From the NCBI GenBank assembly GCA_934153945.1, contig CAKPFM010000001.1, positions 72,128 to 136,127 of the forward strand: DNA of 64,000 nt, given 5' to 3'. The notes beneath the pieces were generated by a model. That model was not told where the DNA came from. It saw only the letters and a program-made list of their open reading frames with translations, and searched no databases. The position numbers were made by a program, and so were the translations under genes. Shown one piece after another: positions 29,720-42,015 of this stretch; within the stretch, counting starts at the first letter, position 1; each line of letters begins with the position of its first letter. This DNA comes from an uncultured Bacilli bacterium (GTDB taxonomy: Bacteria; Bacillota_I; Bacilli_A; RF39; UBA660).

Positions 29720-29961
29720 AGACTTTTTAGTCTTTTTTTAATTTTAATTTATTAAAGAAATATACATGATATAATACTAGTATGTAATGGTAGTATAATG
29801 ATAGTACAAGACTTTCCTAAGGAATACTTCGAAAATGACATACTTTAAAATAAGGCTAAAGAAAAGATTGTATTAATACATAATGACTAAATTATGGCAA
29901 AAATCTAAAAAACATAAAATAATTTGGGAAAATTATGATATAATTAATTTGCATTTTATAT

Positions 29962-30038
29962 GTCCTCGTAGCTCATCGGGATAGAGCAAAAGTTTCCTAA
30001 ACTTTAGGTGGTAGGTTCGAGTCCTATCGGGGACGCCA
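29962..30038 (+). tRNA. tRNA-Arg, anticodon CCT
   Basis: Manual cloverleaf fold: acceptor GTCCTCG/CGGGGAC, D arm GCTC..GAGC, anticodon arm AAAGT-TTCCTAA-ACTTT, T arm GTAGG-TTCGAGT-CCTAT, then discriminator G and encoded CCA. Confidence 0.85.
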
Positions 30039-30051
30039 TTTTTTAACTATA

Positions 30052-30079
30052 AAAGACTTGGTAAAACAAGACTTTTTTC
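30052..30079 (+). terminator. terminator-like hairpin after tRNA-Arg
   Basis: AAGACTTG-N7-CAAGACTT (one mismatch) followed by TTTTTT. Confidence 0.5.
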
Positions 30080-30111
30080 ATGTTATAATTTTGTTAGGAG
30101 GATGTTAATTT

Positions 30112-30882
30112 ATGAAAGAAACATTCAAAAATGGTTTTCTTGATGATAAGATGCAAGAAAAAATTAAAAAAGTTAAATTTAAATATAAAGAAGAATTTGA
30201 TACGTTATATGATTTTAATAGATTAACATATAAGGTTTTTGAAAATTGCAAAGATATTGATGCAGTAGATGAAAATCTGTATTTGTTACCTGCTTTTGTA
30301 GAGATTAGTAAATTATATCAATCAGCAGTTATTATGTTAGAATATGGTTTCCTTAATAATTTTGAAAGTATAGTAAGAAATATGTTAGAGTTATCATTCC
30401 AAATGTTATATGTGTTTGATGATAAAGAAAACGTTAAAAATTTAAAAAAATATACTTATTCTGAAACTATGAAAAAATTGGAATATATCAAAGATAAAAA
30501 ATTATACGATGTTGTACCTAAGGAATTTGTGGATAGACGATATGCAGAATTAGAAAGTTTAAAATCTGATATAAAAAAAATAGGTGCAAAGAATCCGCCA
30601 AATGTAAAAGATATGTGTAAAAATTTAGGATTAGAAAAAGAATATGTATATTATCAATTATTAAGTGATTATACTCATAATGATTATAGTATTATATTTG
30701 ATTTAAATATTTTTACTAAAGAAGGTGTACTTGTAAATTCAAATGGTAATTACACAAATTTTAAATATAATAGTTTAAGATTGATATCTACATTAAATAT
30801 GACATTATTAAAAATGATTGAAAGATATGTTCCGCTATTAAAATCTGAATATGATGAATTGATAAGAAAAGCATTTAATTGA
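30112..30882 (+). CDS. hypothetical protein, 256 aa, first gene of the tRNA-Arg-adjacent island
   Basis: Long ORF with RBS AGGAGG. No motif I can recognise. Confidence 0.55.
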   Translation: MKETFKNGFLDDKMQEKIKKVKFKYKEEFDTLYDFNRLTYKVFENCKDIDAVDENLYLLPAFVEISKLYQSAVIMLEYGFLNNFESIVRNMLELSFQMLYVFDDKENVKNLKKYTYSETMKKLEYIKDKKLYDVVPKEFVDRRYAELESLKSDIKKIGAKNPPNVKDMCKNLGLEKEYVYYQLLSDYTHNDYSIIFDLNIFTKEGVLVNSNGNYTNFKYNSLRLISTLNMTLLKMIERYVPLLKSEYDELIRKAFN

Positions 30883-31158
30883 TATAAAGTCAAAGAAAAA
30901 TAAATTGAATGATATATTATATATCATTGAAATGTGATATAATTAGTGTGGGTGGTGTAATTATGGAAATAAAAAATAATAAAATAATTTATAAAGCATA
31001 TAAAGAATTTTATAGGAAAGAACCCAATTTTTGTAAAGAAAATATAAGGAATATTACAATAGAAATTCAATCAATGCTTTTTTATATTACGCGAATATGG
31101 AATAAATTTAGGATGTGAAAGTTTTGTTAAAAATGCATATAGTGATTTAGACTTACCA

Positions 31159-31587
31159 ATGGATATGACAATACAAGATATAATTATTGGAAAATTAATC
31201 GGAAAAAATATTGATTTGATTGATGATTCAATTAAGTTTAATGAACTTGCAAATAAATATATTGATGTTATTGGAAATGCAATAACAAATGTAATAAATA
31301 ATTCAGAAGATCCAATAGAAACATTACGAGTAATAACTTATATTTTATATACAAGAAAATATGTTTTACCGACAGCGACTGCTGATGTGATTAAGGAATT
31401 TACAAATTGTCAAGAAACAGACTTAGAAAATGTAAATAGATTAATTTATTCAATTAAGATTGAGTTGTGTAAGGATAACTTTGATAAAGTTAATATAGAA
31501 AAAATGATTAATGAATCAGAAAATGGAGAAACTCCACATATATCAGAAGAAAGTAGAAAGATAGCGGTAAAAGCATTATTAAAATAA
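31159..31587 (+). CDS. hypothetical protein, 142 aa
   Basis: ORF of unknown family. Confidence 0.45.
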   Translation: MDMTIQDIIIGKLIGKNIDLIDDSIKFNELANKYIDVIGNAITNVINNSEDPIETLRVITYILYTRKYVLPTATADVIKEFTNCQETDLENVNRLIYSIKIELCKDNFDKVNIEKMINESENGETPHISEESRKIAVKALLK

Positions 31588-31694
31588 TTATATCTAAGAT
31601 AAATAAAATTGATATAAAGTAAGTAGTAGTTTATCAAAACAGGATAAGATGTTTGTGTCACATTTTCTGATAAACCCTTATTTCATAAGAAAAT

Positions 31695-31787
31695 TTAATT
31701 AAAAAATGGTGTCAATTTGAATAATAGAAGTATAAGTAGAATGATGATAATGATTAAAACAAAGATTAAAAAATCTTTCTTAGTCAT
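31695..31787 (-). CDS. small hydrophobic peptide (30 aa, MTKKDFLIFVLIIIIILLILLLFKLTPFFN), candidate type I toxin-like membrane peptide
   Basis: ATG 7 nt after a GGAGG SD that lies in a perfect CCUCC-GAAA-GGAGG hairpin on the mRNA strand. Paralog of the peptide at 39544..39627. Not in the supplied ORF track (below the size cutoff). Confidence 0.55.
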   Translation of the reverse strand: MTKKDFLIFVLIIIIILLILLLFKLTPFFN

Positions 31788-31867
31788 TTCACCACCTCCT
31801 TTCGGAGGTAAGCACTCAACGGTTAAAGTATTACTAAATAAATTATATTAAAACATATATTATAAAA

Positions 31868-31892
31868 ATAACTCAAAAGTTATTTTTTTTAA
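31868..31892. terminator. palindromic terminator-like hairpin between peptide 1 and the VTC fragment
   Basis: AATAACT-CAAA-AGTTATT flanked by an A-run and a T-run. Confidence 0.45.
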
Positions 31893-31963
31893 TCTTTATT
31901 TAATAAAATGGAAATAAAATGATAATGAAATGAAGGGCATAATCATTTCTAAAGGAGGAAAAT

Positions 31964-32341
31964 ATGTATGATAATCACTTTCAAAGAGTAGAAGAAAAAT
32001 ACTTATTAAATGAAGAACAAAAAGAAATATTTTTAAAAAAAATTAAAAATTATATAAAAAAAGATAAATTTTATATAAGCAATATTCATATTGATAATAA
32101 AAATTTAAGAATTACATTTGATAACAATTTAAGAAGTAGAAAAAGTAATCTATACTTTAAAGATGAAGAATCTTTAGAAAATTACTTTAGTGATAATATG
32201 TATATAATGGAAATAAAAACTGTAGGTTCTATGCCTTTATGGTTAGTTAGAATTTTGTCAGAAATGAATATTATGCCAACATCATTTTCAAAATATGGAA
32301 AAATATATGAAAAAGAAATGGAGAAAATAAAATATGCTTAA
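31964..32341 (+). CDS. VTC-domain (polyphosphate polymerase-like) protein, N-terminally truncated version (125 aa)
   Basis: Matches only the C-terminal half of ~240-aa bacterial VTC proteins (NLRITFDNNL.., IMEIKTVGSMPLW.., ..TSFSKYGKIY). No ORF upstream could supply the missing half. It has its own strong RBS AAAGGAGG. Confidence 0.6.
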   Translation: MYDNHFQRVEEKYLLNEEQKEIFLKKIKNYIKKDKFYISNIHIDNKNLRITFDNNLRSRKSNLYFKDEESLENYFSDNMYIMEIKTVGSMPLWLVRILSEMNIMPTSFSKYGKIYEKEMEKIKYA

Positions 32342-33005
32342 TAGTATTTTTACAAGTACAACTAGTTCTATTGAACTATCATCATTACTTATATGTTCTA
32401 TAACATCAATTATATTAGGTTTCATAATTGCCTTAGTACATAAATATACATCTAAATATAGTAAAAATTTTTTAATAACGGTAACTTTATTACCAATAAT
32501 GGTTGAATCTGTTATGTTAATGGTAAATGGAAATTTAGGAACTTCAGTAGCGATAATGGGAGCATTCAGTCTAGTAAGATTTAGAAGTATACCAGGAACA
32601 TCAAGAGAAATATTAGTAGTATTCTTTGCTATGGCAGTAGGACTTGCTACTGGTATGGGACAAATATGGTTTGCTATTATATTAACAATAATAGGATGTT
32701 TAATGATATTATTATTTAGTAATGTTAAAATATTTGATATAAACAAAAATGTCAAAGAATTAAAAATATTAATACCAGAAAATTTAGATTATATAGATGT
32801 ATTTGATGATATTTTTGATAAATATTTAATAGAATGTAATTTAGAAAAAACAAAAACAACAAATATGGGAAGTATGTTTGAATTAACATATCTAGTTGTA
32901 TTAAAAGACAATATAAAAGAAAAAGATCTTATAGATGAAATAAGAACAAGAAATAGTAACTTAAAAATATCGTTATCAAGAGAAAATAATACTTTAGATT
33001 TATAG
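32334..33005 (+). CDS. DUF4956-family membrane protein
   Basis: Signature MGAFSLVRFRSIPGTSREI within four TM helices. Overlaps the VTC gene end; VTC-DUF4956 pairs are a known cassette. Confidence 0.7.
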   Translation: MLNSIFTSTTSSIELSSLLICSITSIILGFIIALVHKYTSKYSKNFLITVTLLPIMVESVMLMVNGNLGTSVAIMGAFSLVRFRSIPGTSREILVVFFAMAVGLATGMGQIWFAIILTIIGCLMILLFSNVKIFDINKNVKELKILIPENLDYIDVFDDIFDKYLIECNLEKTKTTNMGSMFELTYLVVLKDNIKEKDLIDEIRTRNSNLKISLSRENNTLDL

Positions 33006-33013
33006 GAGCAAAT

Positions 33014-34606
33014 ATGAAAAAGAAATATATAATAATTATATTATTACTAGCTTTATGTGGTATCTTTGTATTATTTAAAATTGTACCAAATGAAAATGAA
33101 GAAGAAGCAATAATTAATGATGACATAGATTGGTCTACATACGAAGTTACAAATTATACTCTAACAGAAAGTATAACTATAACAAAAGAAGGAATTTATA
33201 ATTTAACAGGTACACTTAATGGAAGTATTACTATTAATACTAAAGGAAATGTAAAACTAATATTAAACAATGTAACAATTAATAATAATGGACCTGCTAT
33301 ATATATTGAAAATGCTAATATAACAGTTATTGAAACAGAAGAAGGTACAGTTAATACTCTATCAGATAGTAATACTTATAATAATTATGAAGATGAAATA
33401 GAAGGTACAATTTATAGTAAAGATGATTTAGTATTAGAAGGAAATGGAGCTTTAATTGTAAAAGGTAATAAAGGAGATGCTATAGTTAGTAAAGATAGCA
33501 TTAAAATAAATAGTGGTACTTATAATATTACATCAGCTTCTACTGGTATTAAAGTAAAAGATTCTATATATATAGTAGATGGAACATTCAAAATAAATTC
33601 TTCACTAGATGGAATAAAATCAACTAAAGGATATGTTCAAATTGATAATGGAGAATTTATTATAGTATCAGTTAATGATGGTATTCAAGCTGAAACAAAA
33701 CTTTTAATTAATGAAGGTAATTTTAATATAACTACCGGTTCAGGAAGCCCAACATTAAATGGTAATAGAAAAGTAACTATTATAGATAGTTCTAAAGGAT
33801 TAAAAGCAGGAGATAGTCTTATCATAAATGGTGGATCTTATAATTTAGATACTTTAGATGATGCAATACATTCAAATAATTATTTATATATTAAAAATGC
33901 TAGTTTAAATATATCAACAGGTGATGATGGCATACATTCGGATAAGGAATTGGTAATAGATAGTGGTACTATAAAAATTAATAAAAGTTATGAGGGTATT
34001 GAATCGGAAAATATTACTATTAATGGTGGTGATATTAATATAATATCTAATGATGATGGTATAAATGCTGCAGGAGATAGTACAGGTGGATTAACAATCA
34101 ATAATGGTAATATATATGTAAATGCTAGTGGAGATGGACTAGATGCTAATGGTTCAATATATGTTAATGGTGGAACTATAACTGTCGATGGACCAACAGA
34201 TAATGGAAATGGTGCTCTTGATTATGATTCAAAATGTATAGTAAAAGGTGGAACTTTAATAGCAGCAGGTTCAAGCGGAATGGCTCAAGAAATTAGTAGT
34301 GATTCTACTCAATATGGATTATTGATTAACTTTACAAATACATACAATGCAGGAATTAAAATTTCTATTTTGGATAGTAATGATAATGAAGTAATATCAT
34401 ATACACCAACAAAAACATTCTCATTGATTGTATTTAGTATAGCTGACTTAAAAACAGGTACATATAAAATAATGATAAATGATGAAGAATATCAAACAGT
34501 AACAATAAGTAGTATAACAACTACGGTTGGTTCTGTACAAGGTATGGAAGGTAATCCCGGCATGGGTGGACCAGGAATGGGTGGTCAACCTAGAAGAACT
34601 AGATAA
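33014..34606 (+). CDS. secreted beta-helix repeat protein, Cthe_2159-like carbohydrate-binding domain family
   Basis: Signal/TM anchor MKKKYIIIILLLALCGIFVLF. Repeated ITxxGxYxLTGTLNGSITIN... units resemble the Cthe_2159 family consensus. Gly/Pro-rich C-terminus. Confidence 0.6.
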   Translation: MKKKYIIIILLLALCGIFVLFKIVPNENEEEAIINDDIDWSTYEVTNYTLTESITITKEGIYNLTGTLNGSITINTKGNVKLILNNVTINNNGPAIYIENANITVIETEEGTVNTLSDSNTYNNYEDEIEGTIYSKDDLVLEGNGALIVKGNKGDAIVSKDSIKINSGTYNITSASTGIKVKDSIYIVDGTFKINSSLDGIKSTKGYVQIDNGEFIIVSVNDGIQAETKLLINEGNFNITTGSGSPTLNGNRKVTIIDSSKGLKAGDSLIINGGSYNLDTLDDAIHSNNYLYIKNASLNISTGDDGIHSDKELVIDSGTIKINKSYEGIESENITINGGDINIISNDDGINAAGDSTGGLTINNGNIYVNASGDGLDANGSIYVNGGTITVDGPTDNGNGALDYDSKCIVKGGTLIAAGSSGMAQEISSDSTQYGLLINFTNTYNAGIKISILDSNDNEVISYTPTKTFSLIVFSIADLKTGTYKIMINDEEYQTVTISSITTTVGSVQGMEGNPGMGGPGMGGQPRRTR

Positions 34607-34669
34607 AATTGTCTTTATATGACAATTTTTTTGCTTTTATGATATAATTGAAAAGAAGTAGGTGACAAT

Positions 34670-35926
34670 ATGAAACAATTAAATTTAACAAGTACTCCTT
34701 ACATAATTAAGTGTAAAGATTATAGTACATTAACATTTGATTTGATATATCCAACAACATATGATGCAAAAAACATGTTTGATAAAGAATTATTCAAACA
34801 GATAGTTATGAACTCATCCTTTGATTATAAAACAGAGCAAGAATTTAAAAAAGCAAAAATTAATAAATTGATTATAGGTTTAAATTGTAAAACTATTAGA
34901 TACCATAATAATTTATATATAATATATTCTTTAACAATACCAGATCCTAAAAAAGTAAAAGATTTTAATATAGAAGAATCTTTTGAATTTTTTTATAACA
35001 CCATTTATAAACCCAATATAATAAATGATGAATTTAATAATAAACAATTTGAAAGAGAAAAAGAATATATAAAATTTGGTATTCAAAACTCACTAAAAAG
35101 AATCCAAAATTATGGATTTCAAAGATTTATTGAAGTAGCAGATGATATAGGAGATTTAAAAAATAACTTAAATAATAATCTTGATTTGATTGAAAATACA
35201 ACTGCAAAAAGTTTATATGATTATTATAAAAAAATTGTTATAAATAATACACCAATATGTGTTGTTTATGGAAATATAGAAGAAAAAGAAGTAAATAAAT
35301 TATATGATAAATATTTTAATCAAAATAAAACAATAACAATTAATGAAGATTATGATTGCTATATGAAATTAAATGAAACAACTAATTATGTAGAAGAAGT
35401 ATCAAAATTTAATCAATCAGTACTTTATATGTGTTATAAAGTTAAAAATATGAAAGAAGAAGATAAAATATATTTAATGTTATTATCTGATATATTAAAT
35501 GATAGATCAACAAATTTAGTATTTAAAGCTTTACGTATAAAAAATAATCTAATTTATTCATATAATCTTTTATCATACAGTAGATATGGAATGTTTTTTA
35601 TAGAATCATATATAGAAAAAAATAACAAAGAAAAAACTATTGAAGTTATAAATGAACTAATGAATGAATTAAAAAATGAAAAATTAATTAAAGATTGTAT
35701 TTCAAAAATAATAGAAGAATTAGAGTATAATTTGATAGAAACAAAAGATTCAAAATATTATGAATTTGATAAATTTATAGATAATTTATTAGATACTAGA
35801 AAATCATTAGAAACAATATATGAAACATATCAAAATATAGATATCAATGAATTTATGCAATTTTTAAATAGAGTAAAATTAGATACAGTATATTTTCTAA
35901 GAGGTGAAGCAGATGAAACAAAGTAA
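34670..35926 (+). CDS. M16-family peptidase-like protein lacking the HxxEH motif (inactive partner subunit)
   Basis: 418 aa of the same size and architecture as the next gene and overlapping it. No HxxEH motif. Confidence 0.5.
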   Translation: MKQLNLTSTPYIIKCKDYSTLTFDLIYPTTYDAKNMFDKELFKQIVMNSSFDYKTEQEFKKAKINKLIIGLNCKTIRYHNNLYIIYSLTIPDPKKVKDFNIEESFEFFYNTIYKPNIINDEFNNKQFEREKEYIKFGIQNSLKRIQNYGFQRFIEVADDIGDLKNNLNNNLDLIENTTAKSLYDYYKKIVINNTPICVVYGNIEEKEVNKLYDKYFNQNKTITINEDYDCYMKLNETTNYVEEVSKFNQSVLYMCYKVKNMKEEDKIYLMLLSDILNDRSTNLVFKALRIKNNLIYSYNLLSYSRYGMFFIESYIEKNNKEKTIEVINELMNELKNEKLIKDCISKIIEELEYNLIETKDSKYYEFDKFIDNLLDTRKSLETIYETYQNIDINEFMQFLNRVKLDTVYFLRGEADETK

Positions 35927-37157
35927 AATTTACACTTTAAAAAATGGATTAAAAGTAGTATTTTATCAAGATACAACTAAGCATTTATCATTTGCTGAAT
36001 TGATTGTAAAATATGGTGGTATTAATAATAAATTTACTTTAAATAATAAAGAATATCATATCAATGATGGTATGGCTCATTTTTTAGAACATTTATTAAT
36101 AGAACATAGCATATATGGCAATGTACTTGAATATTTTCATAATAATCATATAAGTACAAATGGATTGACATCAATTAAACGTACTAAATTTTATATAAAA
36201 ACAGCTAAAAATTTTTTAGATAATTTAGAAAAATTAATCAAAATAGTTAATCAGCCAATATTTAATGAAGAAGATATAGAAAAAACTAAACCAGCTATTT
36301 ATGAAGAAATAAGAAAAGGAAAAGATAATAATTTTAAAATGTTATTTAATTTAGAAAAAAGTTGTTTATTTAATAATATAGATGCTAAATCAGTTTTGGG
36401 AGAAATAGAAGATATTCAAAATATTAATTATGAAATGGCAAAATTATGTCATGATGTATTTTATCAACCTCAAAATCAGATTCTAGCAATTGCTGGTAAT
36501 GTTGACATAGAAAAAACACTTGAATTAATAGAAAAAGTATATGATGAAATTAATATTAAAAAAATAGAGTATCAAGTACCAACTATAGCAGAACCAAATG
36601 AAGTAGCTAAATTAAATGATTTTATTTATAGAGATATTGAAAATGATTTTGTTAGAATTGCATATAAGATTAATATAGCATCTCTATCTCCATATGAAAG
36701 AGTAAAATTAACTTTTTATATTGGTTATTTTTTAGAGTATAATTTTGATGAAACTTCTATAAATTATAAAAAATTGATGGATGATAAAATATCTGTTAAC
36801 AATATCAATAGCAATGTTAGTTTTATTGATAATTTTATGATTATAACAATAGATACTTATACTGATAAACATGATGAATTTATAAATTTAATAAAAACTG
36901 CTATAGAAAGTAAAGCCATAGATAAAGAAGATTTTGAAATTAGAAAAAAGAGAACATTAATAAATTTTCTTTTGAGGGAAGAAAACTTTATGAGTATGAT
37001 AAATCCTTTTGTTGATAATATTTTATCGTTTGATTATTATGAAAATGATAAGATAGAAGATATAGAAGAAGAAAACTATGAAGAGTATAGTAATATAATA
37101 AATTCATTAGATTTTAGTAACTATACTATATTGAAAATGTTAAAGAAGATAAATTAG
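35913..37157 (+). CDS. M16-family (pitrilysin-like) zinc peptidase, active subunit
   Basis: Inverted zinc-binding motif HFLEH in NDGMAHFLEHLLIEHS. ATG after GAGGTGAAG. Confidence 0.7.
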   Translation: MKQSKIYTLKNGLKVVFYQDTTKHLSFAELIVKYGGINNKFTLNNKEYHINDGMAHFLEHLLIEHSIYGNVLEYFHNNHISTNGLTSIKRTKFYIKTAKNFLDNLEKLIKIVNQPIFNEEDIEKTKPAIYEEIRKGKDNNFKMLFNLEKSCLFNNIDAKSVLGEIEDIQNINYEMAKLCHDVFYQPQNQILAIAGNVDIEKTLELIEKVYDEINIKKIEYQVPTIAEPNEVAKLNDFIYRDIENDFVRIAYKINIASLSPYERVKLTFYIGYFLEYNFDETSINYKKLMDDKISVNNINSNVSFIDNFMIITIDTYTDKHDEFINLIKTAIESKAIDKEDFEIRKKRTLINFLLREENFMSMINPFVDNILSFDYYENDKIEDIEEENYEEYSNIINSLDFSNYTILKMLKKIN

Positions 37158-37219
37158 GTTAGTATTTACTAACTTTTTTCTTTTTGTGATATAATATTTA
37201 CATTATTGGAAGTGATAAA

Positions 37220-37819
37220 ATGTCTAAAGTTTCAAATACAATAACATTATTAAATTTATTAGCAAGTGGTAAAAAATATAATATAAATGAATTAGCTGAT
37301 ATTCTAGAAGTAACACCTAGAATGGTTAGAATATATAAAGATGAATTAGAAAAGTCTGGAATATATATAGATACTATTATGGGACCATACGGAGGATATG
37401 TTTTAAATCAACAGATAAGAATTCCATATAGAAAATTCAAAACAGAAGATTATAAAATGTTAGATAAATATATTAAAGAAGAAACAAATGAAGAATTAAA
37501 AAATAAACTAATTTTATTACAAGATAAAATTAGAGGAATATATATTGGAAGTAAATCCGAAAGTAAAGAACTTAATTTGGAAAAAGAAACATTAAATAAA
37601 TACAATATTTTAACTAGAGCAATAAAAGAACATAGAAAGGTAAAAATTACTTATTATTCTTATAATAAAGGAGAAAATGAAAGAATAATAAATCCTATAG
37701 AAATGTTTTTATATAATACTGGATGGTTTTGTGCTGCATATTGTAATTTAAGATGTGACATGAGACATTTTGAATTAAAAAGAATAAGAAAAATAGAATT
37801 ATTAGAAGAAAAATTTTAA
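37220..37819 (+). CDS. WYL-domain transcriptional regulator with N-terminal HTH (YafY/BrxR/CapW-like architecture)
   Basis: N-terminal HTH (ITLLNLLASGKKYNINELADILEVTPRMVRIYKDELEKSGIYI). C-terminus ..KVKITYYSYNKGENERIINPIEMFLYNTGWFCAAYCNLRCDMRHFELKRIRKIE fits the WYL domain pattern. Confidence 0.7.
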   Translation: MSKVSNTITLLNLLASGKKYNINELADILEVTPRMVRIYKDELEKSGIYIDTIMGPYGGYVLNQQIRIPYRKFKTEDYKMLDKYIKEETNEELKNKLILLQDKIRGIYIGSKSESKELNLEKETLNKYNILTRAIKEHRKVKITYYSYNKGENERIINPIEMFLYNTGWFCAAYCNLRCDMRHFELKRIRKIELLEEKF

Positions 37820-37870
37820 GTTGACAACATATTACCTACTCAAGTAGTAATATCTACTTGGAGGTGTTTT

Positions 37871-38785
37871 ATGGAAGAAAATTTTAAACTTTTATTTGAT
37901 AGAATAATTGATACATTAGAAACAACAGATTTAATTAAAATCAAAAATCAATTAGAAAATATAAAAGGTAATACAGTTTTTGTAGGATCAGGTGGTTCTA
38001 AAGTAGTAGCTACTTTCGCATCTAAAATACTAAACGGGTCAAATGTAAAAAGTTCAAGAGATTTAAATTATATGGGCCTAAATAATATAGATAATATAAT
38101 GATATTTAGTTATAGTGGAATAGGTTATACAATAGAAAATTTATTAAAAAATAACAAAAAAATATATTTGTTTACTAATGGAAATAGGGAATATGAAAAT
38201 GTAGAAAATATAAAATATAACTCATCACTAAAAAGTGAACATAGTTTTATTTCATTAGCTAGCACACTTATGCCAATGACAATTTTATACAATTATTATA
38301 AAAATTTAGAAATTAATCATCTTAAATTAATTTTAAATGATATGTTTGAAAAAGCAAAAAATATAAATATTGAAAGCAATAATGTATATGAAATATTAAC
38401 AGGATATGATACTTTAACTGCTTCTACTTATTTAGAAAGTACAATGGTTGAATCTGGTATAGCTGTTCCAATTATCCATGATAAATATGATTATTGTCAT
38501 GGTAGAACAACTACATCATATAAATCACACAATGGTTTAATATATTATGAAAATACAAAAGAATTAGATAAACTTTTGCTAGAAAATTTAAGTAAATATT
38601 ATACTGAAATAATTAAAATAGAAAAGTATTATAGTGATGATTTTGTAATTGACAATGATTATTATGCAACAATAAAATCGATGTATTTAACTAAAAAATT
38701 AGCTGAAAATAAACAAATAGATTTATCGAAAATAGAATATTCACCTCTTGTAAAAAAATTATACTATTTTAAAGGAGAAATGTAA
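37871..38785 (+). CDS. SIS (sugar isomerase/phosphosugar-binding) domain protein, 304 aa
   Basis: Motifs GNTVFVGSGGSKVVATFASKIL (GxGxSxxxA) and DNIMIFSYSGIGYT (ISxSGxT). These fit the SIS fold better than a SIR2 fold. Confidence 0.55.
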   Translation: MEENFKLLFDRIIDTLETTDLIKIKNQLENIKGNTVFVGSGGSKVVATFASKILNGSNVKSSRDLNYMGLNNIDNIMIFSYSGIGYTIENLLKNNKKIYLFTNGNREYENVENIKYNSSLKSEHSFISLASTLMPMTILYNYYKNLEINHLKLILNDMFEKAKNINIESNNVYEILTGYDTLTASTYLESTMVESGIAVPIIHDKYDYCHGRTTTSYKSHNGLIYYENTKELDKLLLENLSKYYTEIIKIEKYYSDDFVIDNDYYATIKSMYLTKKLAENKQIDLSKIEYSPLVKKLYYFKGEM

Positions 38786-38787
38786 TT

Positions 38788-39384
38788 ATGGTAACATATG
38801 TAACAGGAAATTATGGTAAATATATATCAGTAAAAGAAAAATTTGAAAAATATAATATAGATATAAATTATTATAAATGTGATATTGATGAATTAAATAT
38901 TAATGATATAGAAAAAATAAGCAAAGATAAAGCTAGACAAGCTTATTTAAAATTAAATTCACCAGTATTTGTAGTAGATTCAGGATTTTATATTAGAAGT
39001 TATCCAAATAATCCAAATTATCCTGGAGCATTTGTTAAAAGATCTGGGGTAGCTAAAAATGTAGAAGAGTTATTAAATATTATGAGAGATGTTAAAGATA
39101 GATATTGTTTTTTCCTAGATTGTTTGACTTACTATGATGGAGAAAATTATAAAACTTTTTATGGTAAAAGTGAAGGATTTTTGTCATATGAAGTAAAGGG
39201 TAATGATTTAGTACAAGCCAAATCAAATTTATGGAAAGTATTTATTCCTAAAAATTATGATAAAACTTTAGCTGAAATGACTGAAGATGAAAGAAAAAAT
39301 AGGGGAGAAATAGGCGCTACTGAAAAGTTTATTAATTGGTATAAAGAAAATTTAAATGCTAAAAATTTAGTATTAAAAAAATAA
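38788..39384 (+). CDS. HAM1/RdgB-family (ITPase-fold) non-canonical NTP pyrophosphatase-like protein, divergent
   Basis: N-terminal YVTGNYGKYISVKEKFEKY (TGNxGK..E), VVDSGF, RYCFFLDCLTYYDGE and LAEMTEDERKNRGEIG follow the HAM1 family order. Starts 3 nt after the SIS gene stop. Confidence 0.5.
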   Translation: MVTYVTGNYGKYISVKEKFEKYNIDINYYKCDIDELNINDIEKISKDKARQAYLKLNSPVFVVDSGFYIRSYPNNPNYPGAFVKRSGVAKNVEELLNIMRDVKDRYCFFLDCLTYYDGENYKTFYGKSEGFLSYEVKGNDLVQAKSNLWKVFIPKNYDKTLAEMTEDERKNRGEIGATEKFINWYKENLNAKNLVLKK

Positions 39385-39398
39385 AAATATATGAAATA

Positions 39399-39540
39399 TT
39401 GAAAAAAATTTAAATATATGTTAATATGTATTTAGCAAGCAGTCTTGCATAAAATAAAAAAGGGAACATTCAATTGTGCATGTTGAGTGATTGCCTATAT
39501 AGGTTTCACCTAAATCATTGCTGAGTTAGGTGATTTTTCA
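39399..39540 (+). ncRNA. candidate small RNA 'A': consensus sigma-A promoter plus a ~105-nt transcript ending in a terminator that abuts the 3' end of peptide 2
   Basis: TTGAAA-N17-TAATAT (39399..39427). Terminator hairpin CACCTAA..TTAGGTG plus ATTTTT (39507..39538). No ORF. The 5' ~110 bp is duplicated at 39777..39890 (start of locus B). Confidence 0.45.
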
Positions 39541-39543
39541 TAT

Positions 39544-39627
39544 TTAGATTAAAACTATAAATAGTAATAATACTAATAGGAAGATAAGAATTACTAAAGC
39601 AAAGATTAAAAAATCTTTCTTGTTCAT
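39544..39627 (-). CDS. small hydrophobic peptide (27 aa, MNKKDFLIFALVILIFLLVLLLFIVLI), paralog of 31695..31787 and candidate type I toxin-like peptide
   Basis: GGGAGG SD 8 nt upstream of ATG. A CUUCU-AAAA-AGAAG hairpin abuts the SD. The 5' coding region is conserved with peptide 1 at the nucleotide level. Not in the ORF track. Confidence 0.55.
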   Translation of the reverse strand: MNKKDFLIFALVILIFLLVLLLFIVLI

Positions 39628-39795
39628 AATATCGCCTCCCTTCTTTTTAGAAGTTTGGCAAATCACCCAACTATTAAATGTCCCTATAAATAATATATCA
39701 AACATATATTCGTATATCAAGTAGTTTTATTAAATTTATAAAATTTAGTTTTAATAAAGTAATAATATTGTAAAATGATAAAAATATATGAAATA

Positions 39796-39938
39796 TTGAA
39801 AAAATTTTAAATATATGTTAATATGTATTTAGCAAGTAATTTTGCATAAAATAAAAAAGAGGAACATTCAATGTTGCAAGTGAATGTTGCCTCACAAAAG
39901 TGTGTGACACTCTACAAATGCAGGGTGTCTATTTTTTT
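39796..39938 (+). ncRNA. candidate small RNA 'B', second copy of the promoter plus 5' segment of sRNA A with its own terminator
   Basis: TTGAAA-N17-TAATAT (39796..39824). Transcript 5' end is ~85% identical to sRNA A. Terminator GACAC..GTGTC plus TATTTTTTT (39906..39938). Its 3' end is convergent with the gene at 39989..40933. Confidence 0.4.
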
Positions 39939-39988
39939 GTTAATACCATTATTGTTTAGCATGAAATATATAGCACATTTTCATTTTA

Positions 39989-40933
39989 TTAAAATTTACT
40001 TTTTCTATAAACTAATATTGAATCATTTATTGTACTATCTTTAAATTTTATTCCATCAACACCTATGAATGAAAGCAATTGTGGATTATATTCTTGCAAT
40101 ATTTCAAAAGTTTTTTCTAGATTATATATTGGTTTCCAATCTGGGTGGTATGGAGTGTTTCTATCAGTTTTGTATAAATAACTAATAAGAAGTAACCCAT
40201 TATTATTTAAATTTTTTGATATATTATCTATCATTATTTTTAAAAAATGTCTCGAAATATATGTTCCAATATTTGATAACCATATTGAATCAAATTGTTT
40301 ATTCATTTTTACTTTAAATACATCGTCAGTAATAAATTCTAATTTTGTTTTTTTTATTTTTGCTTTTGTTTCGTCATATAATATATCGCTTTGCAAATAA
40401 GGATTGCATCCTACTATCACATCTATTTTATTTTCGTCAGAATAAAATAATTCTTCTCGTATATTCAATCCCTTAAAGTTTGAAAATAATTCATCCCAAA
40501 ATAAATAAGATTCATAATCTAATAATCTTAAAGTAGATATGATTCTTTTATAAATGTCATTATTAAAAACAAATTTATTATTTCTAAATGTTTTATATTT
40601 ATAACTTAAAAATTCTAAAAATTCATTTTTACTTAATTCAAGTAAACAACTTATTTTTAAATAAATATAAAATTTTGCATATGGACAAATATCTAAACAA
40701 GTTACATTTTGACAATCAAATAAACTTGCATTTATAATTTGGTCACCAGATGCTCCAACAGTTAATAATGTTCCATTAGATAAATTAAAATTGTTTATAT
40801 AACCTGCAATATTTTCTGTCGTAAAAGGATAGAGCAATTGAAACTCTTTAGCAATATCTTCTACAAACATCCCATTACATTTATTGATTGCATTCATCAA
40901 AAGTATTTCAAAATTTGAATCTTTTTTATACAT
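39989..40933 (-). CDS. hypothetical protein, 314 aa, possibly a SAM-binding DUF3419/BtaA-like fold
   Basis: Long minus-strand ORF. Segment LLTVGASGDQIINASLFDCQNVTCLDICP loosely resembles a methyltransferase-like motif I. Low-confidence family call. Confidence 0.5.
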   Translation of the reverse strand: MYKKDSNFEILLMNAINKCNGMFVEDIAKEFQLLYPFTTENIAGYINNFNLSNGTLLTVGASGDQIINASLFDCQNVTCLDICPYAKFYIYLKISCLLELSKNEFLEFLSYKYKTFRNNKFVFNNDIYKRIISTLRLLDYESYLFWDELFSNFKGLNIREELFYSDENKIDVIVGCNPYLQSDILYDETKAKIKKTKLEFITDDVFKVKMNKQFDSIWLSNIGTYISRHFLKIMIDNISKNLNNNGLLLISYLYKTDRNTPYHPDWKPIYNLEKTFEILQEYNPQLLSFIGVDGIKFKDSTINDSILVYRKSKF

Positions 40934-41181
40934 TTATCATCACCTCAATAACTTAAAATTGCTTATTATTATATCACATATTTAAACTATTGAATATATC
41001 TAATAAAATATTTAAAATCTATTTATAAATTAGTAGTTAAATAACTTTAAAATTCCTTATATATGGTTTACAATGAAGAAATTTAATCAAAAACAAATTC
41101 GTTAATAATAAAATTAATTTTAAATAAATGATTATCATTTACATTTATATATGATAAAATAATTTTGTTAAAGGAGTAAGT

Positions 41182-42015
41182 ATGGAAAAATATCAAGAAA
41201 TAGAAAGAAGTATAATAAAAAAATATCGAAAAGAAATATGGAGTAAATTTGTAAAAGCTGTAAGTGAATATGAATTAATAAAAGAAAACGATAATATTAT
41301 GGTATGTATTAGTGGAGGAAAAGACTCATTTTTATTAGCAAAATGTATTCAAGAACTACAAAGACATGGTAAATTTAAATTTGACGCTAAATACGTAGTA
41401 ATGAATCCGGGATACACAGGAAAAAATAAAAATCATATAATAAAAAATGCAGAGATTATGAATATACCAATAGAAATATTTGAAAGTGACATATTTGATA
41501 TAGTAGACAAAGTAGATAAAAGTCCATGTTATTTATGTGCTAGAATGAGAAGAGGATGTTTGTATAACAAAGCAAAAGAACTAGGATGCAATAAAATAGC
41601 TTTAGGACATCACTTCAACGATGTAATAGAAACAACACTTTTATCTATATTATATGGAGCTGAAACAAAAACGATGGTTCCAAAATTACATAGTGATAAT
41701 TTTGAAGGCTTAGAATTAATACGACCATTATATTTAGTAAAAGAAGAAGATGTAATATCTTGGAAAAAATTTAACGAATTAAAATTTTTAAATTGTGCTT
41801 GTAAATTTACAGAAGAAAATTACAAAGAAGAAAATAAAACAAGTAAAAGATTAGAAATAAAAAATTTAATAAAACAATTAAAAAAAATAAATCCCGATGT
41901 AGATTACAATATCTTTAAAAGTATGGATAATATTAATTTAAATTGTGTACTAGGATATTCAAAAAATGGCAAAAGAATAGAATTTGTAGATGATTATGAA
42001 AATAGAACTAGATAA
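41182..42015 (+). CDS. PP-loop ATPase, TtcA-like tRNA 2-thiocytidine synthetase family
   Basis: Translation IMVCISGGKDSFLLAKCIQ carries the SGGKDS PP-loop. CYLCARMRRG and a downstream Cys pair are present. Confidence 0.75.
   Translation: MEKYQEIERSIIKKYRKEIWSKFVKAVSEYELIKENDNIMVCISGGKDSFLLAKCIQELQRHGKFKFDAKYVVMNPGYTGKNKNHIIKNAEIMNIPIEIFESDIFDIVDKVDKSPCYLCARMRRGCLYNKAKELGCNKIALGHHFNDVIETTLLSILYGAETKTMVPKLHSDNFEGLELIRPLYLVKEEDVISWKKFNELKFLNCACKFTEENYKEENKTSKRLEIKNLIKQLKKINPDVDYNIFKSMDNINLNCVLGYSKNGKRIEFVDDYENRTR

Follow-up and report, generated by a model that had tools for sequence, protein, structure and literature searches.

Gene content of the locus

What function could join a WYL-domain regulator to a double-SIS protein and a HAM1-family protein when the three are encoded one behind another in a gut bacterium? 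These genes lie in a stretch of 64,000 nucleotides from an uncultured Bacilli bacterium (contig CAKPFM010000001.1), and this whole stretch is called the window here. A previous reading of the letters only, referred to below as the sequence-only reading, had taken the regulator to control the two genes behind it. All three open reading frames (ORFs) that it called were recovered on the plus strand. Together with the element between the first two, they are:

37220-37819, plus strand: WYL regulator gene, 199 amino acids (aa), helix-turn-helix (HTH) and WYL domain (ORF, profile match)
37820-37870, plus strand: conserved cis-regulatory element, kept in 52 of 52 non-identical loci with a WYL gene and cargo
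37871-38785, plus strand: double-SIS gene (gene 2), 304 aa, core cargo (ORF, structure model)
38788-39384, plus strand: HAM1-family gene (gene 3), 198 aa, "SNLW" subfamily (ORF, profile match)
38773-38777, plus strand: AGGAG, ribosome-binding site of the HAM1-like gene within the 3' end of the SIS gene (read from the sequence)

The DNA around the locus is very AT-rich (~21-23% GC). The regulator gene and gene 2 are separated by 51 nt. Gene 2 ends with TAA at 38783-38785 and gene 3 starts with ATG at 38788, and the gap between them is 2 nt (tt, 38786-38787) instead of the 3 nt claimed before. The AGGAG inside the end of the SIS gene and the 2-nt gap indicate a putative translational coupling of SIS and HAM1.

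We propose, with a probability of about one half, that the locus is a chromosomal operon under WYL repression that serves the house-cleaning or salvage of a non-canonical nucleotide or phosphosugar, and that nucleotide or genotoxic stress probably induces it. The WYL regulator, the SIS fold and the HAM1 fold are each of a known kind; neither the SIS family nor the HAM1 subfamily has been described, nor has their combination or the regulatory element. The literature yielded no account that combines WYL, SIS and HAM1 elements and PADLOC was blank for genes 2 and 3, in agreement with the earlier statement that no described system matches.

Recurrence of the module in uncultured gut Bacilli

One genome per species was scanned, which gave 80 loci, and the genes were typed by local phmmer and HMM searches. 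All 80 loci came from uncultured gut Bacilli, namely RF39/'Tenericutes'-type metagenome-assembled genomes (MAGs), Erysipelotrichaceae, Ca. Coprovivens and CAG:628; a few of the loci are probably mis-binned. The WYL gene was located 5' of the SIS gene in 51 of these species-level genomes. The order WYL-SIS-HAM1 was the most frequent with 34 loci (and one more with a truncated upstream end), followed by PfkB-SIS without WYL (13), WYL-SIS (12), SIS alone (9) and WYL-SIS-PfkB (4). The SIS gene was accompanied by HAM1 in 35 loci and by PfkB in 17, and never by both. The WYL-X-HAM1 order recurred with unrelated flanks at 52-58% identity. Since dozens of divergent genomes show the same order between flanks that are unrelated, the WYL-SIS-HAM1 arrangement is far beyond chance, and the earlier suggestion of a dedicated module with WYL as its cognate regulator is borne out.

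The alternation of partners was also seen in gene fusions. Ham1-SIS fusions were found in P0130 and P0176 and PfkB-SIS fusions in P0190, P0206 and P0212, and a WYL gene lay directly 5' of both fusion kinds. The partner kinases belong to the PfkB family (2.4e-31 and 7.6e-11) and come nearest to ribokinase, ribose-1-P kinase and nucleoside kinase, with scores that fall far short of every equivalog cut-off. NUDIX was rejected as a third interchangeable partner, since the five NUDIX neighbours differ in position and strand. A third kind of SIS fusion partner was observed as well, a conserved N-terminal domain of unknown function and ~110-125 aa (P0122, P0123, P0131, P0143, P0149; L025 7608-7980). 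Pfam gave no match for this domain, which shows no relation to WYL, HAM1 or PfkB. Its pairwise BLASTP E-values range from 1e-22 to 1e-5.

The gene 2 protein has the fold and the conserved residues of double-SIS enzymes

No match to the gene 2 protein was obtained in Pfam, NCBIfam or PADLOC. In the PDB, neither phmmer nor the profile search gave a significant match, the best profile match being a SIS isomerase with E = 0.2, and hhalign of a 20-sequence gene 2 profile against single FrlB or GlmS sequences yielded no assignment. Sequence profiles were blind to the SIS assignment of the sequence-only reading, and it was confirmed by structure alone. The AlphaFold model, built from a 20-sequence alignment, had a predicted local distance difference test score (pLDDT) of 88.7 and a predicted template modelling score (pTM) of 0.90. 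The top 50 Foldseek matches of this model in the PDB were all double-SIS enzymes (E 5e-11 to 1e-8, template modelling (TM) score 0.6-0.7). NagB-II 8fdb was the best (E 4.7e-11, TM 0.69), and the others included archaeal and Thermotoga glucosamine 6-phosphate (GlcN6P) deaminases, FrlB 8glr, FraB and GlmS/GFAT isomerase domains.

The conservation of residues was evaluated in 62 diverse SIS members. E194, H210 and G211 were 100% conserved, the phosphate loop G41-G42-S43 96-100%, and Y81-S82-G83 of the second phosphate loop (S80-Y81-S82-G83) 90-96%, in addition to E123 (98%), K205 and R212 (both 95%). The 16-residue spacing of E194 and H210 equals that of E489/H505 in E. coli GlmS and E233/H249 in FrlB. 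A profile-global hhalign to FrlB was collinear over the full length and paired E194/H210 and both loops, the latter with FrlB CGS and SDYGKT, in an alignment that is weak (pairwise E = 3.5e-3). The corresponding loops of GlmS are CGTS and SQSGET. The window protein does not reach the gathering score of Pfam SIS PF01380, and the distant PfkB-SIS fusion P0190 does, with 32.8 bits against a 25-bit cut-off. Given the modelled fold, the conserved Glu/His pair at catalytic spacing and the retained phosphate loops, we regard it as very probable that the gene 2 protein belongs to the isomerase/deaminase/deglycase class and is catalytically competent.

Gene 2 thus shares with NagB-II/GlmD, the GlmS isomerase domain, FrlB, FraB and AgaS the full-length two-subdomain SIS fold, GGS and SxSG loops and an invariant Glu...16...His-Gly, and the PfkB pairing of SIS in sister lineages mirrors FrlD/FrlB. 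It differs from them in its low identity (10-14%), in being unseen by Pfam SIS and all NCBIfam models, in a conserved Arg instead of Pro after HG, and in a 2-residue deletion in the catalytic helix. Furthermore, it is encoded behind a WYL gene and paired or fused with a HAM1 pyrophosphatase, and no described double-SIS enzyme is under WYL control with such a partner. Relatives of gene 2 were rare, only 360 among 1.84 billion representatives in an exhaustive profile search. Exact copies of the window SIS protein were present in the database, and the best HAM1 match among those listed was 95% identical.

Gene 3 encodes a HAM1-family protein with a replaced base pocket

The ITPase fold that had been proposed for gene 3 was supported by sequence and by structure. 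The protein matched Pfam Ham1p_like (8.4e-19, 68.6 bits against a 22.5-bit cut-off). The model (pLDDT 84.2) was closest to MJ0226 (7e-16, TM 0.83/0.89), then to PH1917 and ITPA, with KomB at a TM of ~0.74-0.81. It had rightly been called divergent, as its scores were below both NCBIfam equivalogs of XTP/dITP diphosphatase (xanthosine and deoxyinosine triphosphate diphosphatase), with 94.8 versus 203 bits for NF011396 and 76 versus 145 bits for TIGR00042.

The catalytic residues were then sorted into those kept and those lost. Gene 3 retains (T/S)xNxxK, the metal-binding Glu, Lys, the Asp of DSG and Arg. These residues (T6, N8, K11, E35, K48, D64 and R105) are invariant in 19-21-member alignments of the subfamily, and in profile-to-PDB alignments they coincide with the phosphate/metal positions of MJ0226, PH1917, PfHam1 and KomB. 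The motifs of the base pocket are replaced, G(F/Y)G(Y/F/W)D (canonically GFGYDP) by SNLW and SHR by D-x-[K/H/R], as the earlier reading had noticed in general terms. Judged by these motifs, the putative pocket is remodelled away from the recognition of inosine and xanthosine triphosphate (ITP/XTP). Gene 3 therefore has the family, fold (TM 0.83-0.89) and phosphate/metal residues in common with RdgB/HAM1/ITPA, the closest archaeal members being MJ0226 and PH1917, and differs from them in the base-stacking loop, the SHR specificity motif and scores below all equivalog cut-offs.

The "SNLW" subfamily is compact (~635 clusters). Three independently sampled members were all located directly 3' of a WYL gene, and the subfamily stood behind WYL genes in every context examined. 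The window protein and its 93-95% identical relatives are outliers of the subfamily, with the next relatives at ~70% identity. HAM1 enzymes classically protect DNA from damage by deaminated purine nucleotides, and the loss of RdgB/ITPase leads to DNA damage through dITP incorporation, which ties these enzymes to genotoxic stress.

A minimal HTH-WYL regulator

The regulator carries an HTH at residues 9-60 (Pfam HTH_11, 1.2e-5) and a WYL domain at 129-193 (Pfam WYL, 2.8e-18). Its PDB matches were the PafBC WYL domain (3.6e-8) and the BrxR-type structures 7qfz and 7tb5 (~2-4e-3), the latter confined to the WYL domain. BrxR and CapW consist of a winged HTH, a WYL and a WCX domain (~290-330 aa). 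The window protein has 199 aa and ends right behind its WYL domain, and so has no C-terminal WCX domain; its homologs in other loci have 159-209 aa.

Like the defence repressors BrxR and CapW and the genotoxic-stress regulators SiwR, DriD and PafBC, the window regulator combines an N-terminal HTH with a WYL ligand-sensing domain and is encoded directly 5' of its presumed targets, and the putative promoter of the cargo carries an inverted repeat. It differs from these factors in its cargo, which is a SIS, HAM1 or PfkB enzyme, and in its putative operator, which is also an anti-Shine-Dalgarno/Shine-Dalgarno (anti-SD/SD) hairpin with a -10 box in the loop. Such a doubling of the operator was not reported in the literature on other WYL regulons. 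WYL regulators often precede defence systems (PMC9122601; CapW, PMC11662680), CapW being a WYL factor that senses single-stranded DNA (PMC11662680). SiwR regulates non-defence genotoxic-stress enzymes that are encoded adjacently (PMC10693628).

A conserved cis element between the regulator and its cargo

The gap between the WYL gene and gene 2 is filled by the conserved element, which the sequence-only reading had missed and whose parts are listed here together with the start signals of the WYL gene.

37823-37836, plus strand: near-invariant GAC-n-A-n-ATA-n-T-n-CC block (alignment of loci)
37833-37866, plus strand: inverted repeat/hairpin (RNAfold, covariation)
37833-37847, plus strand: 5' arm of the hairpin, pyrimidine-rich, with anti-SD CCU
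37848-37853, plus strand: loop of the hairpin, TAATAT, -10-like
37854-37866, plus strand: 3' arm of the hairpin with Shine-Dalgarno GGAGG (37860-37864)
37185-37195, plus strand: promoter-like extended -10 of the WYL gene (tgTGaTATAAT), ~25 nt 5' of its ATG (read from the sequence)
37208-37215, plus strand: ribosome-binding site of the WYL gene, GGAAGTGA (read from the sequence)

The element was conserved even among loci whose SIS proteins share 32-45% identity, and the 52 loci include the fusion loci L092 and L094. The box between the arms reads TGnTAttAT across loci and is extended -10-like, and a U-rich tract lies between the 3' arm and the ATG of gene 2. The motif was site-specific, with 40 of 55 matches in 1.25 Mb falling at this site.

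To assess the RNA structure, each sequence was folded singly and an explicit 13-bp structure was scored. These approaches took the place of RNAalifold, which found no structure on the MAFFT alignment; indels there shift the 3' arm out of register. In RNAfold, at least 4 of 5 SD bases were paired in 52/52 loci, with a median free energy of -13.8 kcal/mol and a median z of -4.9. The 13-bp structure had 82.5% of cells paired compared to 75.2 ± 1.0% in shuffled controls (0/500 shuffles as high), and only 40-57% when it was slid. Both sides had changed in 7 of the 13 pairs; for example, the SD GGTGG occurs with the arm CCAC in L037, L041 and L043. G.U outnumbered A.C in the hairpin pairs by 38 to 9, which is suggestive only of selection on the sense-strand RNA. 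The scan tool independently labelled the window hairpin terminator-like.

The SIS-less locus L099 (3464-4612) encodes WYL-HAM1 and carries the element (GTGACAGAAATATTTCCTCT...TGGAGGAAAT) directly 5' of HAM1. This position indicates that the regulator and the cis element travel as a cassette, whatever the cargo.

Other candidates for signals in this region were discarded. The cargo operator motif was absent upstream of WYL genes in the motif scan, so that autoregulation of WYL via this operator was rejected, and TGnTATAAT boxes similar to that of the window occurred 5' of WYL genes in other loci. "TTGACA" was rejected as the -35 element owing to its ~21 nt spacing to the conserved -10. A sigma-70 scan was uninformative in 22% GC DNA (40 sites versus 31 expected), and an Rfam search of 37000-41300 returned no known RNA.

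Proposed pathway and regulation

The house-cleaning reading is favoured because WYL factors can control non-defence stress enzymes and HAM1 guards against damaged purine nucleotides. The logic of a metabolic pathway is suggested by the sister lineages, where a PfkB sugar/nucleoside kinase replaces HAM1 or is fused to SIS. In the scheme that we infer, both enzymes would be catalytically competent, and the order of reactions, the substrate, the binding and ligand of the WYL protein, the internal promoter and the dual role of the repeat in DNA and RNA would be as follows. The partner would make a monophosphorylated substrate, HAM1 by converting an X-triphosphate to X-monophosphate and pyrophosphate (PPi), or PfkB by converting X and ATP to X-phosphate. 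The SIS enzyme would next open and isomerise, or cleave, the sugar-phosphate moiety of this product. The variants in gene content (SIS alone, HAM1 alone, HAM1 with SIS, PfkB with SIS) would represent different entry points of one pathway.

For the regulation, a WYL dimer would bind the inverted repeat around the -10-like box and be released by a ligand, which by analogy with CapW, SiwR and DriD may be a single-stranded nucleic acid or nucleotide. When transcription reads through from the WYL promoter, the repeat would fold in the RNA as a hairpin with a U-tract, terminate transcription and mask the ribosome-binding site of the cargo. If the hairpin both terminates and masks in this way, the expression of the cargo would hinge on an internal, repressor-controlled promoter, whose transcript would lack the 5' arm.

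A more specific version of this scheme is an as yet undescribed route for the disposal or recycling of a damaged or modified nucleotide. HAM1, or a PfkB nucleoside kinase, would provide the 5'-monophosphate, the SIS enzyme would carry out a GlmS/FrlB-type ring-opening of the ribose-phosphate, and WYL would be the switch, with an operator that is also a translation-gating RNA hairpin. Conceivable substrates include nucleotides of the N-ribosylamine type and those with a ring-opened purine or a C-glycosidic bond. We regard this version as tentative and rather improbable.

Several points weigh against the proposed operon function. SIS enzymes usually act on free sugar phosphates, not on nucleotides, and we know of no chemical precedent for the handoff of a HAM1 product to a SIS enzyme. 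By analogy with the tagatose-6-P pathway, the SIS step could come first and the kinase step second. In distance matrices of 29 trios, WYL and SIS co-evolved tightly (Spearman 0.84), and the co-evolution of HAM1 with SIS or WYL was weak (~0.22), so that WYL and SIS form the evolutionary unit and HAM1 and PfkB are exchangeable accessories. Given this weak coupling, the HAM1-less WYL-SIS loci scattered through the tree and the one WYL-HAM1 locus without SIS (L099), SIS and HAM1 may act in parallel, not in series. The window copy of HAM1 also has an extra 2-residue deletion in the SHR-equivalent loop. At the RNA level, the G.U excess may partly stem from the SD constraint and AT-biased mutation.

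Alternative functions

An ordinary catabolic pair for a sugar, aminosugar or Amadori compound, of the FrlD/FrlB or NagB-II type, was considered. In that case the SIS protein would act as a deglycase or deaminase on a phosphosugar from the diet or the host, with PfkB as its kinase, and HAM1 would be an unrelated house-cleaning ITPase that shares the promoter. The nearest folds of gene 2 (NagB-II, GlcN6P deaminases, FrlB and FraB), the adjacency or fusion of PfkB and double-SIS that resembles FrlD/FrlB, the gut habitat of the hosts and the weak HAM1-SIS co-evolution all fit this explanation, as do a class II aldolase after SIS at one locus and a HAD phosphatase at another. In the window, however, HAM1 sits where the kinase of an FrlD/FrlB-type pair would, PfkB being found only in sister lineages, and the partner kinases are far under the FrlD equivalog cut-off (49.9 versus 247 bits). 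The existence of Ham1-SIS fusion proteins and the HAM1 base pocket remodelled away from ITP/XTP recognition also argue against it. HAM1 is not a generic rdgB passenger, since the SNLW subfamily was seen only in WYL context, even directly behind the same cis element. No transporter or phosphotransferase system gene was consistently linked to the module. Sugar operons are normally under LacI, GntR, DeoR or RpiR regulators, and a WYL-controlled sugar operon is not described in the literature. Judged by Pfam, NCBIfam and kinase scores, neither enzyme falls in a characterised pathway; a place in one was what the sequence-only reading had named as refuting its proposal. We therefore consider a plain sugar pathway unlikely, with some weight left to it.

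The other explanation is defence against phages or other mobile genetic elements, in which WYL would silence a toxic or depleting enzyme pair until infection. HAM1 would deplete or degrade (deoxy)nucleoside triphosphates, or sense a modified nucleotide like KomB, and SIS (or PfkB elsewhere) would be a co-effector. The common position of WYL regulators 5' of defence systems is in favour of this explanation, and the window regulator fits the CRISPR-associated WYL model of PADLOC (3e-28). KomB, a HAM-like defence component, is a detectable relative of gene 3 (1.4e-6 with the single sequence, 4e-18 with the profile, TM ~0.74-0.81), and both involve non-canonical nucleotides. In addition, the module flanks vary among species, the module abuts a strain-variable island, a viperin-like radical-SAM gene lies two genes downstream in one clade, and a restriction-modification (R-M) system adjoins one fusion locus.

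These indications were not matched by the surroundings of the module. PADLOC revealed no recurrent defence family among 138 neighbours of WYL-SIS modules (the top family reached 4/138). According to Pfam, the neighbours were heterogeneous housekeeping genes instead, namely tRNA synthetases, cell-wall enzymes, ABC transporters and sigma factors. A search of viral contigs, phages and plasmids found no relatives of the module, and a phage or plasmid origin was rejected. Genes 2 and 3 have no PADLOC match, the regulator is without the WCX domain of BrxR and CapW, and the literature yielded no SIS domain tied to anti-phage defence. The module was kept between two strains of one species (the window and L009), whereas the adjacent 7.3 kb differ, and the interchange with PfkB suits a pathway, not an effector. 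The BrxR/CapW-style framing of the sequence-only reading consequently gained no support: the co-occurrence of WYL, SIS and HAM1 for which it had proposed a search was found, with no recurrent defence family around it, and of its two options the metabolic one, a nucleotide or nucleotide-sugar modifying pair, fared better. A defence role is in our view doubtful.

Membership in the Kongming system was rejected separately. This system consists of the deaminase KomA, the HAM-like sensor KomB and the SIR2 NADase KomC, and KomB senses dITP as part of a filament that also contains KomC (PMC13454610). The partner of HAM1 in the window is a SIS enzyme, with which a kinase pairs in other lineages, and SIR2 or deaminase partners are not adjacent; a SIR2 gene was found four genes from the module in one clade only. 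By Foldseek, KomB is no closer to gene 3 than ordinary ITPases are.

A non-enzymatic SIS protein that modulates HAM1 or PfkB as a ligand-binding or regulatory subunit (cf. RpiR/MurR, GckR, DiaA) is very improbable: several regulators do use SIS domains as sensors, allosteric control would fit with a fusion to either nucleotide-binding partner and gene 2 has diverged beyond the reach of the Pfam SIS model, but the fully conserved E194, H210 and G211 at catalytic spacing, both retained phosphate loops, the many loci with a SIS gene and no partner, and a double-SIS architecture that belongs to enzymes and not to sensor domains all oppose it.

Implications

Gene 2 would represent a new enzyme family of the SIS superfamily that is invisible to present profile libraries, and with gene 3 the HAM1 pyrophosphatases would gain a new specificity class. 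The two groups are restricted to abundant, uncultured, small-genome gut Bacilli with poorly known metabolism. The reach of WYL regulators would be widened past defence and the SOS-like response to small-molecule enzymes, and a damaged or modified nucleotide as the substrate would mean a new branch of nucleotide-pool sanitation. The alternation of HAM1 and PfkB partners is a concrete handle on this substrate. Moreover, a minimal HTH-WYL protein with operator, hairpin and promoter within 50 nt makes a compact and portable regulatory cassette that can be dissected or reused.

Neighbouring genes and flanking features

Upstream of the module, 29821-37164 of the window is a strain-variable 7.3-kb island that adjoins tRNA-Arg (29962-30038). 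Among its ORFs (30112-37157), one encodes a protein of 530 aa and two are M16 peptidase genes. The same-species MAG L009 (96% identity) has 4.8 kb in place of the island, with a 775-aa Laminin_G_3/N-methyl (pilin-like) protein. The right breakpoint is 55 nt 5' of the WYL start codon, and synteny with L009 begins at 37165.

Downstream, the first terminator-like structure 3' of HAM1 is the following.

39506-39538, plus strand: hairpin TCACCTAA...TTAGGTGA, then a T-run

The scan did not flag this hairpin, whose loop is longer than 8 nt. It may be the end of the operon transcript, to judge from its position, and is part of a downstream repeat unit. This unit is a ~110-nt direct repeat with two copies (39374-39483 and 39771-39881), the first 89 nt of which are 93% identical. 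TTGAAA-17-TAATAT stands at the start of each copy, and behind each copy lies a terminator-like hairpin (39506-39538 and 39906-39929). Between the repeats, the minus strand has a small hydrophobic ORF, MNKKDFLIFALVILIFLLVLLLFIVLI (~39544-39627). This arrangement is reminiscent of a type I toxin-antitoxin or small RNA pair; Rfam gave no match.

At least three lineages have a DUF3419-like (methyltransferase-like) gene no more than a few kb from the module (window 39989-40933, minus strand; L099 7222-8004; L018). The window protein matched that of L099 with E 1e-10 over 74 aa and Pfam DUF3419 with 1.4e-5, which is below the cut-off. This recurrence may reflect functional linkage or chance.

In L015 (9654-11217), and also in L001, L014 and L074, two same-strand genes follow the module, and then a LysR regulator. 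The first is CYTH-like (TIGR00318, 1e-5). The second is the viperin-like radical-SAM gene (NF038283, 6.7e-38, 130 versus a 180-bit cut-off; PADLOC pVip, 2e-38), which is specific to this clade of 4 loci. An HTH_3+CYTH gene was also present 5' of WYL in L097 and L098. The CYTH and viperin-like neighbours may point to a modified-ribose nucleotide, or may be a coincidence.

Extra enzyme genes were found directly 3' of the module at single loci, none of them consistent across loci: a class II aldolase in L075 (8903-9556, 7e-54), an isochorismatase/nicotinamidase-like gene in L035 (5002-5667, 3e-14), and a HAD hydrolase with a deoxynucleoside-kinase-like gene in L097 (5663-7137). In L091 (635-7412), the gene directly before the PfkB-SIS fusion encodes 824 aa, including a HAD-IIB (Cof-type) phosphatase domain, and an NgoMIV-type R-M pair adjoins on the opposite strand.

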